64,000 bases of DNA from Eledone cirrhosa (GCA_964016885.1 OZ024740.1:40796001-40860000); one strand, 5' to 3'. Shown: positions 23,350 through 42,047, counted from the stretch's first letter. Notes: generated from the sequence alone by a model not told the origin. Numbers and translations: made by a program.

Positions 23350-24140
23350 ACATGCAGATAGTACATGGTGTGGACAACAGATGTTACAAGATGTGGACAA
23401 TGAATTATACAAGAAGTGAACAGCAGATGGTACAAAATGTGGACAACATGGTACAATATGTGGACAATAGATGGTACAATATGTGGACAGCAGGTTGTAC
23501 AATATGTGGACAACAGATGGTACAATATGTGGACAATAGATGGTACAATATGTGGACAGCAGGTTGTACTAGATGTGCACAACAGATAGTACAATATGTG
23601 GTTAACAGATGGTACAATATGTGGACAGCAGGTACTAGATGTGGACTACACGGTACAATATGTGGACAGCAGGTTGTACAATATGTGGACAACATGGTAC
23701 AATATGTGGAGAACAGATGGTACAATATGTGGACAGCAGGTTGTACAATATGTGGACAACAGACAGTACAATATGTGGACAACAGATGGTACAATATGTG
23801 AACAGCAGGTAGTGCAAGATGGGGATAACAGATGATACCAGATGGTGCAAGATGTGCACAACAGATGGTACAATATGTGCACAGCAGATGGTGCAAGATG
23901 TGCACAACAGATGGTGCAATATGTGCACAACAGATGGTGCAAGATGTGCACACCAGATGGTGCAAGATGTGGACAACAGATGGTGCAAGACGTGCACAAC
24001 AGACGGTACAATATGTGGACAATAGATGGTGCAAGATGTGCACAACAGATGGTACAATATGTGGACAACAGATGGTACAATATGTGGACAGCAGGTAGTA
24101 CAAGATGTGGACAGTAGCTGGTACAAGATGTGGACAACAT
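23350..24140. repeat. Minisatellite, ~23-bp unit (ACAACAGATGGTACAATATGTGG)
   Basis: More than 30 degenerate tandem units; accounts for the stacked Cys/His-rich ORFs. Confidence 0.95.
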
Positions 24141-24899
24141 ATGGTCCCAGCTGCAGTGTGTTCAGCTCACAATCAGAAGTTCATAAGTTCAATTTCCTGT
24201 GGTGTGTTGTGTTCTTTCGTAAGATACTTATTTTACATTGCTTTAGTCCACTGAACTGACAAAAATGAGTTGTACCTGTAATTTAAAGGAGCCAGCTTTA
24301 TCACTCACTGTGTCGTGCTGAATCTCCCTGACAACTATGTTAAGGGTCCAAAAGTCAGTTACTTGCATGTTAATTTTCTGAGCAGGCTGTTCCATTGTAC
24401 AAACAACTGCAACACTTATTGGAACTGACAAATCCACAACCCACATTCATAGCTATAAAAATATAAATGCTTCTTTTTGTGTTAATATCTCAGAATTATT
24501 CTTTACATATTCTTCTCTGATTTATGTATCTTTCTATCTTCCTTTCTCAGTTCAAAGTTTTCCAATTAGATATATGCTTACATAAATTGATCAAACTATC
24601 ATTTTAAAATAAGTGTAAACTGATTACTCGTGGGGATTTCTATATTCTGATGATCTAGTCCTCATAGCTAAATCTGTGGCAAAATTAGAGAAGAAATTCC
24701 AGACCTTTTGTGTATTATACACCAAGCATGTATATAAAATAAAAATACATTAAGTGCTTTTTTCAAATCTTTATTATTTATCCTATATATACACACATAT
24801 ATAATAATTATAAAAACCTATATATACTTTGGGCTCGAGTTATAGCAGGACACACAGAGCAAATACTCCAGGTCCACCCATCTGTGAGGCCTCCTGGCA

Positions 24900-30335: not shown

Positions 30336-33300
30336 ATGGTGAGTACTGTTAATTTTTCGTTTATTGACTAAATTTTATTTAAATATGTCGACTTGAATGA
30401 TATATATTGTACACATTATACACGATATAATTAGATTAACAAAATACGAATATGATCGCAGAAGAAAAACCTTTTGGAAGATTGAAAACAAAAAAGTGTT
30501 TGAGATTATTTTTAAAGTTGACAAATTAGAAACGCAATTTTGTTATATACACATTAAGTATATGACGATGGAAATGTTCACTATTAGGATATGACTATAT
30601 ACTCTCGTTTGTTCCTATCAATTTAGTATAAAGTTAGTCAAACCGTAAGAGGAAACTTTGGTAGGCCACGAACAGAATTTTCTCTTATTTTTACTTCTGT
30701 TAACGGAATATAAAACTGAGTTACAGTTAAGCCTTTATTTATAACTGATTTTGGCGATATCCAATTTTAGTGGACTAAATGCTGCTTACGTGCTGTAATT
30801 GCTGTTTACTTCAATGTATGAGGCTATTCCAACAAATTTACATTCCCCTTTTTTTAGCCGTTAAAAGAAATATAGATTTATTTATTGTTTTGTTTTTTTT
30901 TGCGATTTATTTGCCACTGGGGCATAGATTTCTTTATTTGCCACGGGGGAAGTTTTTACAAAAATCAAGTACAAACATTTAACGAGTGATTAAAAAGGAA
31001 TATAAAAAATTAAGTCCTCAATAGAGAGGCAGCCTTTACACACACCCCCGTAGAAAGTGTGCGACTTTTCTGCCAGGGAGCACAGAGAGAGGGGGGTGCT
31101 CCCTTCTCTTACCTGTACAAGCCGATATAGAGAGATGGCCCGCTTACACGGGCCATTATTGCTACTTTCACCCATCTTTCATGGAATTGGCTGGGACTGA
31201 GTGCCTTTCTCTCCACCTTGATCCTTCTTTCGAAGTGGTATCGGAAGAAGAGGACCATTTGTTGGCCGGCGACTTATCCCCACAGATCGGCAAAAAAAAA
31301 CAAAAACGTGGCAAATAAAGAAATCTATGCCCCAGTGGCAAATAAATCGCAAAAAAAACAATAAATAAATCTATATTTCTTTTAACGGCTAAAAAAAGGG
31401 GAATGTAAATTTGTTGCAATAGCCTCATACATTGAAGTAAGCAGCATTTAGTCCACTAAAATTGGATATCGCCCTAATTTTTTCTGCTGTCTTTTCATGT
31501 AATTTTTAAACGATCTGTTTCTCTAAAGCGATATAATTTGTACACGAGCTCTGAAAACGAGTAAAGCACGTGTTGTAAGGAGTATTAACATCACAAATTT
31601 CACATTAGGATAGATTATAGACAATTATTTACACAAACAATTTCTCATACACATTTAACCCGTTAAACTTTGTTTTACATGATCCGTCACGTGGAGTTTT
31701 CTTTTCCTGCTTACATTTTAACGAAAACTGAATATTTTTTTTTTACAATGGAAATTCTTTAAAAAGGGATAAAATAGCTTAAATGTGCAATTTCCGAATC
31801 TTGCTCTAGTGCTCTTTTATGAAAGAGGTTGAAGGGTATAAATACCTTATTTTCCTTGGTGATTGATCTAGTGACAACGAGCTTATTACAGTGATTAAAT
31901 GTTAGAAAGATTAAACACTCTTTCATTTACATTGTACAGATAAAGCTAAGAAGAGTTAACAGCACAAACTTTTAAAGCAGTGACTTTATTGCTAATTTAT
32001 ATTTCATTATGGCATTTGGTTTTGTTGGGACCACATCGTCTTTGTCATACTTCAATTTATCCCGTGACCAACATTTACTAATTTCTTACCTTCTTCATGT
32101 GTCTTCGTCATCCATTAACTTCGACTAGAACTGATTCATACACATTTTTCATTTATCTCGTGGATTTACTGTTTCATAATAGTAGTTTGATTTGTTATGA
32201 TTCTGGTGCTGATCAAATATTGGCCCAAATTGACTTTTTAAACAGAAAATATTACACTACACTTCGTAATGTCTTGAATTCATGTTACATCATAATCATT
32301 TAACGTCCGCTTTACCTACTGACAAGGGTTGGACGGGGCTGTATACTCAGACCAAGTCAGTACTGAAGCGTTCCAGACCGAGTGCAGATTGTCTTGACAA
32401 ACTGAAGAATCCTCCTAACCTGTTCATCGGCAAGATTTTTATGATTGTAAGGGTGTTGATGGATAGACAGTGCACTCAATATTGAGATGCAGATTGACCC
32501 ATTTGAGTAGTGGTTCATTTTGTTACATTATCTGAAATGAATTTTTGTTGACTGCGAGAAGAAAAGATATATATGTATAGTCATGTTTATTGTGATAACA
32601 TCACTGAAGTTACAATTACGTAGCCTTTAGCAGGACTTTATGAACTTGTACATGATGTTGCATGTATTACGTTAGTTTCTTTTACAGAGACTGTGATCAG
32701 AACTTACCACTGATACAAGTTCATAGCTAACTGCTAACTACAACTTTTGGGTGGATAAGACATTCTAATTAATACAAATATATGTAAATCTGAAAGCTGT
32801 TTTTGCAGTAAAATGCAAAAAGTTTGACCTTTTAAAAGCATTTTGTATATCAATTGACAAAAAAAAAATGTTTTCAGAAAACCAATTCACCAAAATGTGT
32901 TTACCAGCTTTTAGAATATACACGTCTCCCACCTCCCCATCATATGGTGTGCCTGAAAGAGTTGGGGCCAGGAAGAGCATTTTGGGCCATAAAGTATTGG
33001 AAGAGGCTATGTAGCCGGTAAGAGAGTCAGACACTTGAGTTGTGGCCAGAGTTAAGAAAATTTGAAATCTTTTCCCACCATCAATTGTTAAAAAACAAGT
33101 TAAAATCATTTCGTCGTCCATTCGTAACGTACGTTACGCATTAGTTACATATACACATCTCCACATAAATAACAGAATGGAGGGGCTGGTGAAACGCTAT
33201 AGTGATGTGTGTTGTGTCCCATTAGGGTTTTCAGTCTACATAGCTTATTCGTAAAATATTTCCTTAAAAAATCCTGCTATTGCCTAATTTACTGAAGGGA

Positions 33301-36300
33301 AAGATAGATTTGTTTCCCCAAATGGGAAATGATAAACTCTGCCTTTGTAATTTTAATCTAAAACATCTTCATTGAATTTTTTAAATAATCTCTCTATTTT
33401 TGTTACAGCCACGGCAAATATCTGAAATAAAAGAATTTTTGTTGACTGCGAGAAGAAAAGATGCCAAATGTAAGTCTTACATTCAAATATTTTCTAAATC
33501 ATTCTGTTTAGGATTTATAAATTGTATAGCTATCAAAATATGTTGAATGTGTCGGCAGGAATTAATGGGTAATGTTTACATGGTTTACAGTGCATCTTCG
33601 CTTATCTGGATATCGCTTTTCCGAAATTCGATTTACCACACGGCTATTTCTATACTACAAACTGTGTGTATTTGAAGGTTTATGTTTATCTGAGGGTTTA
33701 TGAAGTTTATAGAAAACGCGCCTAGTGCCGGTTGGCAACTTGTGCCTAGCCGTAACACGTGGCGTGTATTGATTTCTTTTATTTGATTGACTGTTTAAAA
33801 GCTAAGAAAACTAACTTGGCTCTCAGTTAAACAATGGCTGGAGAAAAACGAAAGTGAGTTGTTTTGACTATCGCGGATAAGCTCTCTATATGATGCATTG
33901 AAAAAGAAAACAACTACGCCAAATGAACTCGCGAAAAGATACAATGTCGGGACGTCTACAATATCGGATATCAAACGGTCGGAAGCCAAGCTGCGCGGAT
34001 TTGTATCTGAAAAATTCCAAATTGGTTTGAAGGGAGTGGAAAAGAAAGAGAAATGCCTGAAAACGTCAGACTACGAGCAATTAGACCAGGCATTGTACAT
34101 TGAAGATTTCATCGAATGCTTTGAGAATGACGGGTTAGGGTATTAACGTTTCGATGACGTCGGAAAAGTCGAAAGGGGGATGACGAAGAAGAGGAAGTTT
34201 TAGTCGAGAAACGCCCCGTGACGCATGCGGAAGCACATCATCATATAGACCAATTTTTAACATATTTGAGGTGTGAGGGACTGGCGGATCCGGTTAGCAC
34301 TGCGACATGTTTACGTTGGCGGGAAATGGTAGCGGAACGACGAGCTTCAGCGTGAAAACAATCTTCTATTTATAACTTTTTATGGTTTGATTCAATTCAG
34401 TTTTACCAAGTTTTTGTTTGTTTAATTCTTATGTTTGTTTAATTAATTTTCTTATAAATTCTAGCTGTTCTTTTGTTATTCTAATAAACTTTCTGTACTT
34501 AGCATTTGTCTTTTATTTTGACTAAATGAAGCCAAAACATTAGAAACCACGAGCATTATGTAACAATGGGATTTTAGAATTCACTTAACCGTGTAGGTAA
34601 CACGGTAAAAAGTTCCCAGTTCCACACTGTAAATGTGGTTGGTGTTAGGAAGGGCATCCAGCCTTAGAAAGCCTGCTAGATAGTCCTATACCAACATTGC
34701 CTCAAGTGGGACAACTCCTGTCTAACCCATGCTAGCGTAGATGAACATTAAACGATGATGATGATTATCCGGATCTTTTTCTAACTGTTTGGTTTTGACT
34801 GTGTCCGGATAAGCGAAGATTCACTGTATTGGTATTTCTTCTGGTTCTCTGCTCTGAGTTCGCCCAGTTCAACTTTGTCTTTCATCTTTTTTGGGGTAAA
34901 GAGTAATTGTTTCTACTTCTGACACAAGGCCAACAATTATCCCAGTGCATTACTGGTGCTTTATTTTACCGACCCCATAAGGATGAAAGGCAAAGTTAAC
35001 CATGGCGGGATTTAATAAATAATAGTGCTAGTTCAGGAGCAGTGGATTGGTGTTATGGTTAAAATGGCGGAAAAGGAGTTTTGTGGTGTCTGATCCAGCT
35101 ATGTGTATTCTGAGTTGAAATTCCATGTCCAGTAGATAGTATCAGCAATGGAAAGTTTGTTTTCTTCAATCTGATAAGCTTTTTTCCTTTATTTCTGGAG
35201 AAATTTTACAAAGAATGTCTATATGGTCATTCTATAGTCGATTTATTGTGATTACATTACTGAAGTTACAATTAGCCTTTCTTTAGGACTTTATGAACTT
35301 GTACATGATGTTGCATGTATTACGTTAGTTTCTTTTACAGAGACTGTGATCAGAACTTACCACTGATACAAGTTCATAAGTTAACAGCCTCTGGGGGTGA
35401 AAATTATAAGTGCTGAATTATACATTATTGATATGAATGCTTTGCATACATTTTCTGTCAGTGTTTGTTTTAATTTCTTTATAATAATGTTTAGAAATTG
35501 TAAATTAAATTTTCTCAAACGTTATCTCTTTCCAGCTGTAAAAATTAAGAAGAACCGCGATAATGTCAAATTCAAGGTTCGTTGTAGCCGTTTCTTGTAT
35601 ACACTTGTTATACATGATAGAGAAAAGGCTGACAAATTAAAGCAATCTTTACCACCAGGTTTGTAGTATTGTTTAACTGTTTTCTAATTAATGTGTTTGT
35701 TTAATGGTCATGTTATAATCAGCTGCCATGATTTATGGTGAAAATTAATCTAAAATGTTAGTGTTATATATAAACCAGTTTAAAACCTATATGATGTATT
35801 TTCCATGCTCCCCATGACTGAATTTTGATCACAATTTTTAACTGATACAGGCTTTATTAACATACTTTCATTAACATGAGTGGTTACTAACTATAACATT
35901 GGAACATGGTGATGTGATTACAGATTCCATTTACAGAGGTACATCACCAAATTTTCTCAACTATGGCAAATGTAGAGAAAGAGTGCATAGAGAATTTGTT
36001 TACAAGAAAAAATAGATTGCCTAATTTACCAAGGATTAATATTAATATATCTATATATTTCATGTAAAAAAAATAAAATATATTCTGGAAACAAGGTGTC
36101 ATATAACTATCAGATTAATTGTATTAAATTTTAAATTAAATTTAAAATATAACTACCAAATTGAGTTTACATTACCTGTGGGGAAATTTAAATAGAGAGC
36201 AACAGATGCTTTAATCTGTACAACTAGGTTTACTCTGCTGTTTACAGAAATATATAATATTTTGTATCTTTCCTTTTCTTGATATGACTAATAATTGTTT

Positions 36301-39300
36301 CTACTTTTGGCACAAGGCCAGCAATATCACAGTGTATTACTGGTACTTTATTTCATCGCCCCCATAAGGATGAAAGGCAAAGTTAACCTTGGCGGGATTT
36401 GAACTCAGACCATAAAGATCCATAACTCTTTGTTGCAAAGCACGGCGTCCAACCCTCTACCGATACTGCCGATCCATATATATTGGACTCGTTTCTGTTG
36501 TGTTGTAATTTAATCTATTTTGGAGGGGCTTATTAAAATATCTAGATAAACAGGTAGATTCATATAAGATTTTATTGGTACTGACAGGTTACTATAAGGG
36601 CTTGTGTGTATTTGAACACTTCAGTACAGGCAAGTAGCTATGATAAGGGCTCATGTATTTGATGTTATAGGGTCTAGTTTTCTGATAATAAATTGAATAT
36701 TCAGGTTTATATAGAATTATATATATTGGACGGATAGGTGTCCTCATCTTGTTTTGCTGTTAACGTTTCGGCTGATGTACTCTCCAGCCTTCATTAGGTG
36801 TCCTAATGATGTTATTAACGTTTGTTCAGGTCATTGCCTAGAATTATACTCGGAATCTTGAGGTTAGCCCGCTTTTTAACCACTTTTTTTTTTTTTTAGG
36901 GCTTATAAACTGATATTTTTCAATCCTTCCTAAAAATATCAGTTTCTAAGCCCTATAAAAAAAAAAAAGTGGTTAAAAAGCGGGCTGCTAACCTCAAGAT
37001 TCTAGGCAGTGACCTGAACAAACGTTAATAATAACATCACTAGGACACCTGAAGAAGGCTGGAGTGTACATCAGCCGCAACGTGTTAACAACAAAACAAG
37101 ATGAGGACACCTATCCGTACAATATATATATGTAAATAATTCCTCATCTCAAAAATATAGAACAGTTTTATATAGAATGTTGATAATTAATATAATTAGT
37201 TGCTCCTTGATTGATGAAGATGACCTCCTCCACTGGCCTGGGAAATACTGCAAAGTTTATGGAGACTGAGAGAGGTTACGTCCTATAACCACTAAACTAA
37301 ACCCTAAAATAGTATAGGATGGAGGCTACCACTTTCTATAACTTCTGAACTAAACCCATAAAATAGTAACTAATGCAATTGTTATCCTTGAGTGATGATT
37401 AAGCTTTGACACCTCTTGTTTGAGTGTCTTCACTGACACAATGCACGGAAAGCTTTCACTGACTTGGATTTTATCTCTCCACTTTTTAATCTGGGAGTAG
37501 ATTTAATATATTTGATAAATGGAAACAATTCTTTTGGTACACAACTATAAACATTGGTATTTTTTTTTAGTTAGTCACTGTAAGGGATGTTCTTTATTTA
37601 GAAATAGGGTTTTTTATTTGAGTTAGCATCTTACCTAATGCTGCTTTATCCATTTAAATCAAAAGATATCATCATCATCATCATCATTTAATGTCCGCTT
37701 TTCCCTGCTTGCAAGGGTGGGACAGGAACTGATTCTGGCTTGATTTCTACAGCTGGATGCCCTTCCTAACACCAACCTCATTTACAGTGAGTGCTGAGTG
37801 CTTTTTTGCCGTGGCACCTCCACCATCTCATTTCTACAGCTGAGTAAACTGGAGCAATGTGAAATAAAGTGTCTTGCTCAAGGAAACAACACATCACCCG
37901 GTCTGAGAATTGAACTCACAACCTTTCGATTGCAAGGCCAATGCTCTAACCACTAAGCCATGTGCCTCCATATCTTTCTAATAAAGCTGTTGGACTCAAC
38001 TTAGCCATCCCATTGTGGGGAAGTTTATACTGTAGATATTATTGACCTTGGGGTTAAGATGTTTGATTCCAGATCATAAGATTGTGGGTCAGTTGAGACA
38101 TTGTGTTCTGGGATAAAACATATTTCACATGGCTTTTTGTGATAGGACTAGGGCCAGTATTAAAATTCATGTGAAACTTCCATATGAGATACAACCTGAA
38201 AGAGGCCAGTTAGACCTTTCTTTATATGTATCTGTGACCTATAAACTTCATTATGAAGTCAAGTCGATGGTAATTTCTCTCAATATCTTATGTTTAATTC
38301 CAACTATATTTCCATCAGCCACTATTTGAACTGTTAAGGTAACGTTTTAATGGTAGACTTTCTTGGTCTCAGGTTGTTGTTTGCCTGATCAAGATCAGTA
38401 CTCAGTTTCCGGGGTCGACAAACTTTGGCTGAGCCTAATGTTTAGGTTAATACCACTGCCTGGCCATGACTGTCTTCTATAGAATCTAGTTTTAAACTCT
38501 GGACAGATCTACCTAAAATGAAACTCTGGCATTCCTCTGAACTAAACCCCCAAAATGGTAACTAATACAATTGTTGATCCTTGAGTGATGATTAAGCTTT
38601 GACACCTCTTGTTTGAGTGTCTTCACTGACACAATGCACGGAAAGCTTTCACTGACTTGGATTTTATCTCTCCATTTTAATATATTTGATAAATTGAAAC
38701 AATTCTTTTGGTACACAAATATGAACAATGGCATTTTTTCTGAGTTAGTCACTGTAAGGGATGTTCTTTATTTAGAAATAGGGTTTTTACTTCAATTTTT
38801 ATTGAGTTAACATCTTATCTAATGCTGCTTTATCCACTTAAATCAAAAGATATCTTTCTAATAAAGCTGTTGGACTCAACTTAGCCATCCCATTGTGGGG
38901 AAGTTTATACTGTAGATATTATTGACCTTGGGGTTAAGATGTTTGATTCCGGATCATAAGATTGTGAGTCAGTTGAGACATTGTGTTCTGAGATAAGACA
39001 TATTTCACATGGCTTTTTGTGAGAGGACACTATTTTATTAATATTCCTGTGAAATGCAGTGTATGCGTGTGAGCTGTAAAATTCTCAAAAAACCTCTTTA
39101 CTTAATGAAACCTCAAGTGATTAGTTTCCAAGATCAACAATGAGGAGGTTGACAAACTTGGGTCGAGCCCATGTTGGCTTGGGTTAATACCACTGCCTGG
39201 CCATGACTGTTTTCTATAGAATCTATAATATTTCAAACTCTGGACAGCTCTCCTTTCTCTATATTTAAACCCTGGTAAACCCTGCATTTCCTTCTGAACT

Positions 39301-42047
39301 AAACCCCAAAAATGGTAACTAATACAATTGTTGATCCTTGAGTGATGATTAAGCTTTGACACCTCTTGTTTGAGTGTCTTCACTGACACAATGCACGGAA
39401 AGCTTTCACTGACTTGGATTTTATCTCTCCACTTTTTAATCTGGGAGTAAATTTTAATATATTTGATAAATTGAAACAATTCTTTTGGTACACAAATATG
39501 AACAATGGCATTTTTTCTGAGTTAGTCACTGTAAGGGATGTTCTTTATTTAGAAATAGGGTTTTTACTTCAATTTTTATTGAGTTAACATCTTATCTAAT
39601 GTTGCTTTATCCACTTAAATCAAAAGATATCTTTCTAATAAAGCTGTTGGACTCAACTTAGCCATCCTGTTGTGGGGAAGTTTATACTGTAGATATTATT
39701 GACCTTGGGGTTAAGATGTTTGATTCCGGATCATAAGATTGTGAGTCAGTTGAGACATTGTGTTCTGAGATAAGACATATTTCACATGGCTTTTTGTGAG
39801 AGGACACTATTTTATTAATATTCCTGTGAAATGCAGTGTATGCGTGTGAGCTGTAAAACTCTCAAAAAACCTCTTTACTTAATGAAACCTCAAGTGATTA
39901 GTTTCCAAGATCAACAATGAGGAGGTTGACAAACTTGGGTCGAGCCCATGTTGGCTTGGGTTAATACCACTGCCTGGCCATGACTGTTTTCTATAGAATC
40001 TATAATATTTCAAACTCTGGACAGCTCTCCTTTCTCTATATTTAAACCCTGGTAAACCCTGCATTTCCTTCTGAACTAAACCCCAAAAATGGTAACTAAT
40101 ACAATTGTTGATCCTTGAGTGATGATTAAGCTTTGACACCTCTTGTTTGAGTGTCTTCACTGACACAATGCACGGAAAGCTTTCACTGACTTGGATTTTA
40201 TCTCTCCACTTTTTAATCTGGGAGTAGATTTTAATATATTTGATAAATTGAAACAATTCTTTTGGTACACAAATATGAACAATGGCATTTTTTCTGAGTT
40301 AGTCACTGTAAGGGATGTTCTTTATTTAGAAATAGGGTTTTTACTTCAATTTTTATTGAATTAACATCTTATCTAATGCTGCTTTATCCACTTAAATCAA
40401 AAGATATCTTTCTAATAAAGCTGTTGGACTCAACTTAGCCATCCCGTTGTGGGGAAGTTTATACTGTAGATATTATTGACCTTGGGGTTAAGATGTTTGA
40501 TTCCGGATCATAAGATTGTGGGTTAGTTGAGACATTGTGTTCTGGGATAAGACATATTTCACATGGCTTTTCGTGATAGGACTAGGGCCAGTATTAAAAT
40601 TCATGTGAAACTTCCATATGAGATACAACCTGAAAGAGGCCAGTTAGACCTTTCTTTATATGTATCTGTGACCTATAAACTTCATTATGAAGTCAAGTTG
40701 ATGGTAATTTCTCTCAATATCTTATGTTTAACTCCAACTATATTTCCATCAGCCACTATTTGAACTGTTAAGGTAACGTTTTAATGGTAGACTTTCTTGG
40801 TCTCAGGTTGTTGTTTGCCTGATCAAGATCAGTACTCAGTTTCCGGGGTCGACAAACTTTGGCTGAGCCTAATGTTTAGGTTAATACCACTGCCTGGCCA
40901 TGACTGTCTTCTATAGAATCTAGTTTTAAACTCTGGACAGATCTATCTAAAATGAAACTCTGGCATTCCTCTGAACTAAACCCCCAAAATGGTAACTAAT
41001 ACAATTGTTGATCCTTGAGTGATGATTAAGCTTTGACACCTCTTGTTTGAGTGTCTTCACTGACACAATGCATGGAAAGCTTTCACTGACTTGGATTTTA
41101 TCTCTCCACTTTTTAACCTAGGAGTAAAGAGAATTTCTTGTGATTTTGCTGAAGATATTTTAGCATGTTTATTTATTATGTAAGAATGTCTGCAGCTTAT
41201 TTCCTCCACTCCATCAGTACCTACACCCGATGCAGAAGTATTTCTGGTTGCTGACCCTAATAGTGTTTCCACCCCTCCCTAGCTACTGGCCTTGTCTGGT
41301 AAAGAGGATCAGTGGAACCCCAGCAGCACAAAAAGTGAGTCGTAAAAAAGGGTGGATGAACACCTGAGTCAGTGGCCATCCACCCCGAACTATTAGTTAA
41401 ATAGCCTCACCAACCTGCAATTGGCCAAGCATGGTGAGTACAGCTATACACCTGTCATGACCAAAACTAAACAGGAAGCAGTGAAGGTCAACCAGGGAGG
41501 GATTCTTTCTTCCAACAGGATGGAGAAGGTTCTGGATTGGATACGTAGATTTAGATATTTACATAAATTATTTTGTATCCAACTTCTGCAAGCATGGAAA
41601 AAAACAGATCTAAAAATGCTGGTGTGTGTAGTAAGATACCAAAACTTATATTCAAAGCAACAACTTGGTGAAAAAGGTTACATATTTCACTAAATCCACC
41701 CCAGTTTTTATCATTACAAATAAAAAGTTTTATTTATTACATATCTGGGCCAAGTATGATATATAGTTTCATTTGTGATGTGGGTGTTAAATACAATTTC
41801 TTTTTATTTTGTTGAACTGTTGATACCTCTAAATAACATATTTCCTCAAATTTAAGGATGATTGAATTTTTTTGTATTGCATAAGCAATAGATACATAGA
41901 TTTTTCTTTAAATTGTGTATCAACTACTTTTGCGTAGCTTTTGAAATTTGTGTAAAATTTGTTTGTTTTTATATTTGCTCATTAGTTTAATTATTTAAAA
42001 AACAATTTTTTCTTTCTTTTTTAGGTCTTCAAGTCAAAGAAAAATAA
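30336..42047 (+). CDS. RPL38: 60S ribosomal protein L38 (eL38), 69 aa; exons 30336-30338, 33409-33469, 35536-35658, 42025-42047
   Basis: M|[21 protein letters not shown]|[41 protein letters not shown]|LQVKEK*. All introns GT-AG and in phase; AATAAA at 42043 and 42055. Confidence 0.97.
30753..31473. mobile_element. MITE with ~170-190-bp TIRs and 8-bp TSD (Merlin-like)
   Basis: 30753-30945 is the reverse complement of 31307-31473; termini GGCGA...TCGCC; flanks CTGATTTT / CTAATTTT (7/8 match). Confidence 0.8.
32518..32568 (+). pseudogene. Degenerate intronic duplicate of RPL38 exon 33409-33469
   Basis: TTTGTTACA..TATCTGAAAT..GAATTTTTGTTGACTGCGAGAAGAAAAGAT matches 33399-33462 with deletions; acceptor AG and donor lost. 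Confidence 0.85.
32639..32725 (+). ncRNA. Intronic box C/D snoRNA, copy 1
   Basis: Perfect 12-bp terminal stem TATGAACTTGTA/TACAAGTTCATA; C ATGATGT, D' CAGA, C' GTGATCA, D CTGA; antisense elements to conserved rRNA segments; sense to the host gene. Confidence 0.8.
33409..33469 (+). CDS. RPL38: RPL38 coding exon ([20 protein letters not shown])
   Basis: Acceptor TTTTTGTTACAG, donor GTAAGT. Confidence 0.97.
33588..34826 (+). mobile_element. Internally deleted Tigger/pogo element with a nested RTE-tail fragment (34588-34765)
   Basis: TIRs CAGTGCATCTTCGCTTATCTGGA / TCCGGATAAGCGAAGATTCACTG with TA TSD; CENP-B-type HTH fragments ([37 protein letters not shown]). Confidence 0.85.
35292..35378 (+). 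ncRNA. Intronic box C/D snoRNA, copy 2 (identical to 32639-32725)
   Basis: 87/87 nt identical by eye; lies ~160 nt upstream of the next acceptor. Confidence 0.8.
35536..35658 (+). CDS. RPL38: RPL38 coding exon (VKIKKN...QSLPP)
   Basis: Acceptor CTCTTTCCAG, donor GTTTGT; inside ORF 35397-35666. Confidence 0.97.
35786..35851 (+). ncRNA. Candidate box C/D snoRNA
   Basis: Stem CCTATA/TACAGG (1 mismatch), C ATGATGT (35791), D' CTGA (35818), C' TTGATCA (35825), D CTGA (35842). Confidence 0.55.
36719..37128. repeat. ~410-bp palindrome of a Penelope-type terminal repeat with hammerhead-like motifs
   Basis: Arms 36719-36920 and 36932-37128 are reverse complements around an 11-nt spacer. Confidence 0.8.
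37384..37469 (+). ncRNA. SNORD60-like box C/D snoRNA, copy 1 of 5
   Basis: C GTGATGA (37392), guide TTTGACACCTCTTG antisense to 28S CA(A/G)GAGGUGUCAGA, D' TTGA, D CTGA (37459), terminal ATCC/GGAT stem. Confidence 0.75.
37671..37969 (-). mobile_element. tRNA-headed CORE-type SINE with RTE-derived tail, inserted in array unit 1
   Basis: ATATC target duplication; empty site (AAAAGATATCTTTC) visible in the other units; same family as 54529-54903. Confidence 0.9.
38577..38662 (+). ncRNA. SNORD60-like box C/D snoRNA, copy 2 of 5
   Basis: Identical to copy 1. Confidence 0.75.
39334..39419 (+). ncRNA. SNORD60-like box C/D snoRNA, copy 3 of 5
   Basis: Identical to copy 1. Confidence 0.75.
40111..40196 (+). 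ncRNA. SNORD60-like box C/D snoRNA, copy 4 of 5
   Basis: Identical to copy 1. Confidence 0.75.
41011..41096 (+). ncRNA. SNORD60-like box C/D snoRNA, copy 5 of 5
   Basis: One substitution (CATGG vs CACGG) relative to the other copies. Confidence 0.75.
42025..42047 (+). CDS. RPL38: RPL38 terminal coding exon (GLQVKEK*)
   Basis: Strong polypyrimidine acceptor TTTCTTTCTTTTTTAG, stop TAA, poly(A) signals. Confidence 0.92.

Follow-up and report, generated by a model that had tools for sequence, protein, structure and literature searches.

Five tandem copies of a predicted snoR1/snR48-type guide RNA gene within one RPL38 intron of the octopus Eledone cirrhosa

Animal box C/D snoRNAs are held to need an intron of their own, and the last intron of the octopus RPL38 gene raises the question of how five near-identical box C/D genes could be accommodated, and possibly released, side by side in a single intron. 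We addressed this question in a window of 64,000 nucleotides, the whole stretch of DNA that was analysed and from whose first base all positions are counted, and in searches of the complete genome, of metagenomes and of sequence data from a second species.

The array and its host gene

The coding exons of RPL38 (Table 1) join into a frame of 70 amino acids, and exon 3 occurs at one locus in the whole genome. Since these exons are contiguous in the protein around the last intron, the five copies share this intron, so that several snoRNA genes lie between two consecutive coding exons. Each copy begins with its C box at the first base of the core given in Table 1, the C boxes being spaced 1193, 757, 777 and 900 nt apart, and 935 nt separate copy 5 from the real 3′ splice site. 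The 71-nt core from C to D box is identical in copies 1–4 and carries a single change in copy 5 (41073, C>T), and when used as a DNA query against the animal's own 3.0-Gb genome it recovered the five copies of the array only. The initial annotation was accordingly right in describing five near-identical copies in one RPL38 intron, with a core that varies at one site.

The units between the cores are mosaic. Positions 37970-38678 are 98.6% identical to 40404-41112 (709 nt), whereas 38413-39831 and 39147-40610 (~1.4 kb) share 94% identity, and the spacers fall into two types, A and B, which are 82% identical over ~100 nt. Such a mosaic suggests that unequal crossing-over or conversion took place repeatedly, and units of 94–99% identity fit the local amplification that had been proposed as the origin of the array. 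The tandem array itself was also recovered as annotated, with its extent redrawn from inter-unit homology and its units shown to be mosaics that combine two kinds of spacer and, in unit 1, a SINE. Of the six candidates originally placed in this intron, five stand; the sixth is weak, with an imperfect C box, a D box, a folding z of +0.46 and an 11-bp match to 18S rRNA including one G-U pair.

Table 1 Features of the RPL38 window and of related loci in the same genome (cores run from C box to D box; L and G000 entries lie outside the window)
Feature	Position	Strand	Remarks
RPL38 start exon (ATG)	30336-30338		
RPL38 exon 2	33409..33469	+	Pfam L38e positions 1-21 of 68
RPL38 exon 3	35536..35658	+	Pfam L38e positions 19-63 of 68
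RPL38 last intron	35659..42024	+	6,366 nt, host to all five copies
RPL38 last coding exon	42025..42047	+	to stop codon
Weak sixth C/D candidate	35791..35845	+	same intron as the array
Tandem array, mosaic units	~37342..41128	+	inter-unit homology
Predicted snoR1/snR48-type C/D copy 1	37392..37462	+	35.5 bits on custom family model; C box 37392-37398, guide 37405-37418, D′ 37420-37423, hairpin 37424-37439, C′ 37441-37447, D 37459-37462
Copy 2	38585..38655	+	core identical; type-A spacer upstream
Copy 3	39342..39412	+	core identical; type-B spacer upstream
Copy 4	40119..40189	+	core identical; type-B spacer upstream
Copy 5	41019..41089	+	C>T in C′ box; 31.6 bits on custom family model
SINE in unit 1	37671..37969	-	5-nt target duplication
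tRNA-like SINE head	37903-37960		within unit-1 SINE
Inverted repeat, MITE-like	36718-37130		immediately 5′ of array; arms 84% identical
C/D-like RNA, RPL38 intron 2	35296-35374		8-bp terminal stem
Duplicate of intron-2 C/D-like RNA, RPL38 intron 1	32540-32734		91% identity, with decayed exon-2 piece
Inverted-repeat arms, RPL38 intron 1	30870-31010 and 31300-31470		GC-richer core between (by eye)
Minisatellite	23355-24145		23-nt unit, ~34 units
rDNA with helix-88 break signature	L006-L009, L022, L024, L026, L027		8 loci with the target site
snoR38-type x3, one RPS19 intron	L168:4340-5668 (G000:C17)		flanking exons Pfam 53-77 then 77-114
SNORD34-type x3, one RPL13A intron	L181 (G000:C4:185.29 Mb)	-	flanking exons chain 85-135 then 135-176
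U18 (SNORD18) x4 in RPL4	L169:1842-9070 (G000:C4)		two within one intron
U16 x10 tandem	G000:C1:303980127-303987227 (L173)		7.1 kb
U31 x5-6 array	L180:2368-7095 (G000:C6)		
U14 x6 array	L172 (G000:C5:33003688-33006232)		

An assembly artefact was rejected as the source of the array. In samples X1 and X4, which belong to a single study (X1-X4) that is possibly the source of the assembly, each of the two spacer types is found unchanged in contigs, and the contigs with the core have a greater depth than single-copy pieces (27.3 vs 3.9-9.4 in X1; 19.4 vs 2.1-5.3 in X4), contig depth not being equal to copy number. X4 was treated as DNA-like, exon 3 being uncovered and the joints shown including no exon junction; the RAD run X6 gives hardly any coverage of the array.

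Several further elements occur in the same gene and window. The long inverted repeat next to the array would fold as a long hairpin in the pre-mRNA segment that separates copy 1 from the sixth candidate. A second C/D-like RNA in intron 2, duplicated in intron 1, gave no match reaching 10 bp in the one rDNA stretch compared; a reading of 35250-35380 as an H/ACA RNA was dropped, as the C/D reading fits better. The inverted-repeat element of intron 1 is likely to be a non-autonomous DNA transposon, judging from its arms and core, and a minisatellite lies upstream of the ATG exon.

Identity and predicted target of the encoded RNA

We regard it as nearly certain that the cores of the array are guide snoRNA genes. 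All five copies have both the C box (GTGATGA) and the D box (CTGA), enclosed by a terminal stem that comprises a 5-bp outer stem and further pairs in the predicted fold and that reaches ~6–9 nt beyond the core on both sides in copy 1; folding z scores are -2.44 for copy 2 and -2.09 for copy 5. Internally, a D′ box (TTGA) is followed by a 5-bp hairpin and a degenerate C′ box that aligns with the C′ of the family, so that the C/D anatomy previously assigned to the locus was found in full: C, D′, hairpin, C′, D and terminal stem. The change in copy 5 falls on C′ position 6, where C is present in 76 of the 85 assignable metagenome homologues among the matches listed, 11 of 96 having no assignable C′.

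These homologues were collected with a pattern made of the C box, the guide and the D′ box, which matched at least 120 metagenome loci, with 96 distinct RNAs among the matches listed. In the matched loci a hairpin follows D′, and a C′ box of the form TG(A/C)NC and a D box are present as well; since hairpin, C′ and D were absent from the search pattern, their presence supports the anatomy of the family; the array RNA resembles the 96 distinct homologues in both its C′ motif and its internal hairpin. A custom sequence model built from 56 non-redundant metagenome RNAs with parsable C′ and D boxes found the five copies at E values of 3e-10 to 6e-9 (31.6–35.5 bits) and nothing else in the window, these scores being partly circular because the guide had served as selector. 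None of the 120 metagenome loci listed had an RPL38 match. Five metagenome loci (L055, L066, L081, L101 and L106) hold two to three tandem copies of the snoR1 family, 130–430 nt apart. In the octopus genome itself, a pattern of C box and guide gave 12 matches, comprising the five copies of the array, five overlapping matches in one TGA microsatellite and two others, and no match of this DNA-pattern search outside the array has the full C/D anatomy.

An Rfam scan of the window returned only the tRNA-like SINE head above its cut-off. The best Rfam match of the cores is plant snoR1 (RF00345), at 17.5 bits against a cut-off of 49, and the guide and D′ register of its consensus are identical to those of the array cores. 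Arabidopsis snoR1 is reported to target G2792, the counterpart of G2791, which snR48 targets in yeast (PMC8053127), a site located in helix 88 of 28S rRNA (PMC8053127, PMC5389607). Because the register matches snoR1 and the target is the G2791 equivalent, we classify the array RNA, as predicted from these sequence features, as a snoR1/snR48-type guide in the yeast G2791 register rather than a SNORD60.

The name SNORD60-like used in the initial annotation is thus replaced: the SNORD60 model (RF00271) misses the array copies and has no match over cut-off in the genome, the register is that of snoR1/snR48, and the Rfam search that was to place the RNA yielded a sub-threshold snoR1 and no SNORD60. 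A pattern in the SNORD60 register had one genome match, which lacks C/D anatomy. The guide of human SNORD60 (RF00271) pairs with this 28S stretch in another register, which would put its site at the G two bases 3′ of the array target G.

Against the 28S rDNA of its own genome, the guide forms a 14-bp duplex that includes two G-U pairs in all four fetched stretches that contain the site, and the +5 rule places the methylated base on the first G of GAGG, rRNA positions having been assigned from motifs and from PMC13321053; both the pairing and the +5 position had been predicted at the outset. The guide is therefore predicted to direct 2′-O-methylation of the G in helix 88 that corresponds to yeast G2791. 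The antisense element on the D side gave no convincing rRNA target, its best matches being 9–10 bp with one or two G-U pairs. The array RNA shares its guide and D′ register and its helix-88 target with Arabidopsis snoR1 and yeast snR48 but differs from snoR1 in scoring far below the Rfam cut-off, in the two G-U pairs it forms with the diverged octopus 28S, and from both in the presence of five copies in one animal intron. Yeast snR48 is described as directing a second methylation two bases 3′ with the same guide (PMC5389607), which for snoR1 is presented as a proposal only (PMC8053127). Unlike S. cerevisiae snR48, the array RNA has a recognisable D′ box, and the second methylation (G2793) is for this reason not confidently predicted.

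The target lies close to a site of special interest in octopuses. A post-transcriptional break of 28S helix 88 at TATG/CGTC has been reported for incirrate octopuses only and linked to higher translation fidelity (PMC13321053); the main text of that paper contains neither the word 'snoRNA' nor 'endonuclease'. The octopus ribosome of the same paper is PDB 9EHO (PMC13321053), to which the uL13 exon of the present genome is identical over 41 residues. The break signature lies 11 nt upstream of the target G in eight of eight rDNA loci with the target site, two of which (L006 and L022) appear to be rDNA copies decayed just downstream of the signature. The guide duplex begins 8 nt downstream of the break, and as the array guide is the sole guide that this analysis found pairing beside the break, its role there is directly testable. 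We treat this adjacency as a lead and not as a mechanism, and the amplification is no evidence of a role in the break because unrelated guides are amplified too.

An additional pairing of the C′–D segment across the break was rejected on window statistics: for copies 1–4 it is not significant, 13% of 28S windows doing equally well, and for copy 5 the figure is 1.75% of windows, post hoc among five segments. Within the homologues, none of 200 partner shuffles matched the internal pairing of this segment (n=87), and the segment more likely pairs within the snoRNA than across the break.

Conservation of the copies and recurrence in other families

Compared with copies 2, 3 and 4 in turn, copy 1 shows 0 changes in 83 core sites against 21–22 events in 220–240 flank sites (P 0.0009–0.002, with the core defined by structure), the three comparisons amounting to one independent contrast; the many changes attributed to the flanks of unit 1 are thereby borne out. 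Among copies 2–4 the same test for selection gave P 0.29–0.43, these copies being too young or too alike. Identity between copies extends ~18 nt beyond the terminal stem, and since the units are mosaic, conversion or unequal crossing-over could homogenise the cores without selection.

A second species bears on the age of the copies. X5, from a second study, represents another species (organism B) with ~7% intron divergence and 31 mismatches in ~460 aligned nt around RPL38 exon 3. One of its contigs runs from the core interior into a flank of the copy-1–4 type (37442-37538, depth 23.9), and another (depth 15.2, ends estimated at ~41075-41164) has differences at 41117-41132 in the copy-5-specific flank, with 40 of its 177 differences listed. 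As the contigs reach two flank types, we infer at least two copies in organism B. Taking the evidence together, we think it probable that more than one copy is functional.

The arrangement recurs in this genome. Of 12 Rfam C/D families searched, six form local clusters, with at least three copies for snoR38, four for SNORD18, six for SNORD14, ten for SNORD16, five for SNORD31 and two for SNORD34, for which BLAST added a third copy; these counts are lower bounds because only the best candidates were scored, and the snoR38 and SNORD14 matches lie below the Rfam cut-off. SNORD15 and SNORD36 are single within 10 kb, and the genome searches for SNORD60, 74, 29 and 24 returned no credible clusters. 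In RPS19, RPL13A and RPL4 the exons flanking the multi-copy introns are contiguous in the protein, and a multi-copy intron is present in four of five ribosomal-protein hosts, RPL38 included, the fifth (with SNORD36) being what we take to be RPL7A. Each RPS19 copy opens with a donor-like GTGAGT that doubles as terminal stem, and the oldest SNORD34-type copy of RPL13A lies ~130 nt from the 3′ splice site.

Older copy pairs have cores of 78–93% identity and flanks of 42–61%, compared with a random baseline of 43–56%, and conservation confined to the core is seen in the copies of RPS19, RPL13A, U31 and U16. One member of the RPL4 intron pair was copied recently out of the preceding intron (identity of 94% over 188 nt), and core-only similarity therefore need not mean long co-residence. 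Among the larger arrays, that of U16 is bounded on one side by a short piece that resembles an exon and on the other by a strong acceptor, and it has a median core identity of 94% with flanks at 56–66%, a single further U16 copy lying at C4:47702439; the U31 and U14 arrays likewise show core-only conservation. The SNORD16, 31 and 14 arrays, which have no identified coding exon, may belong to non-coding hosts with one copy per intron. Overall, the octopus case is best read from these genomic data as an ordinary guide RNA in an unusual arrangement that recurs across the genome.

These observations bear on whether the extra copies could be silent products of neutral duplication, with one or none beyond the terminal copies processed and conversion keeping them alike. 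The high identity and mosaic make-up of the units would fit this, as would the C′ change in copy 5, and about one third of annotated vertebrate snoRNA copies are reported to be expressed (PMC10234308). We nevertheless judge it unlikely, in view of the unchanged core of copy 1 beside changed flanks, the two or more copies inferred in organism B and the repetition of core-only conservation in RPS19, RPL13A, U31 and U16.

Release of the copies from the intron

Canonically, an intron is debranched and then trimmed by exonucleases, so that each intron gives a single RNA (PMC11028025). For the octopus array we propose instead release by internal cleavage, to which we assign a probability of about 0.4. 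Tandem copies would arise locally by unequal crossing-over, the transcript would be cut endonucleolytically inside the spacers, and the fragments would be trimmed to several mature snoRNAs per transcript; the mature RNA would then guide methylation of the helix-88 G, with selection acting on more than one copy. We favour internal cleavage because, if additional copies prevented maturation, it would be difficult to see why arrays were repeatedly amplified with their cores conserved. Release of intronic snoRNAs by an endonuclease without splicing is described for yeast Rnt1 and Xenopus XendoU (PMC10557570). In the octopus spacers no hairpin is unusually stable (z -1.16 and -0.09), so that nothing in the sequence points to an RNase III-type cut site.

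The missing hairpins would be consistent with a route that needs no endonuclease, in which a subset of copies assembles snoRNPs and exonucleases trim the lariat to the outermost assembled ones; a single assembled copy would then give a mature snoRNA and any other outcome a sno-lncRNA. Such a route needs only standard debranching and exonucleases together with the known sno-lncRNA outcome (PMC11028025), and it would also accommodate the conserved cores, since each copy would contribute in some lariats and all copies could be selected. However, adding copies would reduce the mature RNA obtained from each lariat, and this agrees poorly with repeated amplification in 6 of the 12 families searched; we consider this route doubtful.

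A further alternative would restore one copy per intron by means of non-coding exons between the copies, included in a minor RPL38 isoform destined for NMD. The RPL38 repeat unit holds no coding exon, yet splice-like sites are present: upstream of each of copies 2–5 lie a TATAG acceptor-like site and, at 27 nt from the C box, a donor-like site (ATG/GTAACT) that outscores the real exon-3 donor on the matrix used, and these sites imply candidate exons of 75 or 95 nt (38483-38557, 39220-39314, 39997-40091 and 40917-40991). GTGAGT precedes the RPS19 copies, and in humans alternative splicing with NMD separates SNORD49A and SNORD49B, which share one intron of SNHG29 (PMC4233243). On the other hand, across 10 inner copies in four genes such sites are not enriched relative to random intron windows (acceptors P 0.67, donors P 0.31, with a crude scorer and a generic donor matrix), which weakens the own-intron alternative; moreover, the four RPL38 sites represent one duplicated site, and copy 1 has no donor (score -1.8). 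Exons of this kind seem to us improbable, and internal cleavage remains the reading that we prefer.

Several known systems place limits on the novelty of the array, which the initial annotation described as an undescribed system. Clusters of intronic snoRNAs were reportedly described in rice (Liang 2002). In Drosophila introns, H/ACA loci cluster while C/D loci occur one per intron (PMC3089462). The octopus arrays resemble both in having several snoRNA genes per intron, but they involve C/D genes in an animal, each array being composed of copies from a single family. When two C/D snoRNAs lie in the same human intron, a sno-lncRNA results (PMC11028025), and these cases, like SNORD49A/B, are pairs, whereas the octopus arrays have 3–10 copies. 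Tandem amplification of a C/D gene inside its host locus is reported for SNORD115/116 and for cis-duplicated vertebrate snoRNAs (PMC2653536); the SNORD115/116 repeat unit contains exons and so gives each copy its own intron (PMC11608373), in contrast to the octopus array, which has no coding exon between copies and an rRNA target. With Drosophila H/ACA clusters, SNORD49A/B and sno-lncRNAs already described, the initial wording was too strong. Our literature search, which for the most part lay outside subscription papers, found neither a study of how snoRNA genes are organised in octopuses nor one of snoRNAs in mollusc RPL38 introns.

Two broader proposals follow, neither of which we favour. 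That the amplified snoR1-type guide is a factor that folds helix 88 or times its cut is very improbable; the guide, amplified five-fold, would be a first candidate for such a factor. Rather less remote, though still on balance unlikely, is that incirrate octopuses have abandoned the rule of one C/D gene per intron genome-wide, with tandem guides in single introns that an endonuclease separates. The 2–5 conserved C/D copies per intron in four ribosomal-protein genes provide a natural test of the one-per-intron rule, and the 41073 C/T marker together with copy-specific flanks allows a cheap test of which copies mature. A breach of the rule would indicate either a release nuclease or unseen splicing.
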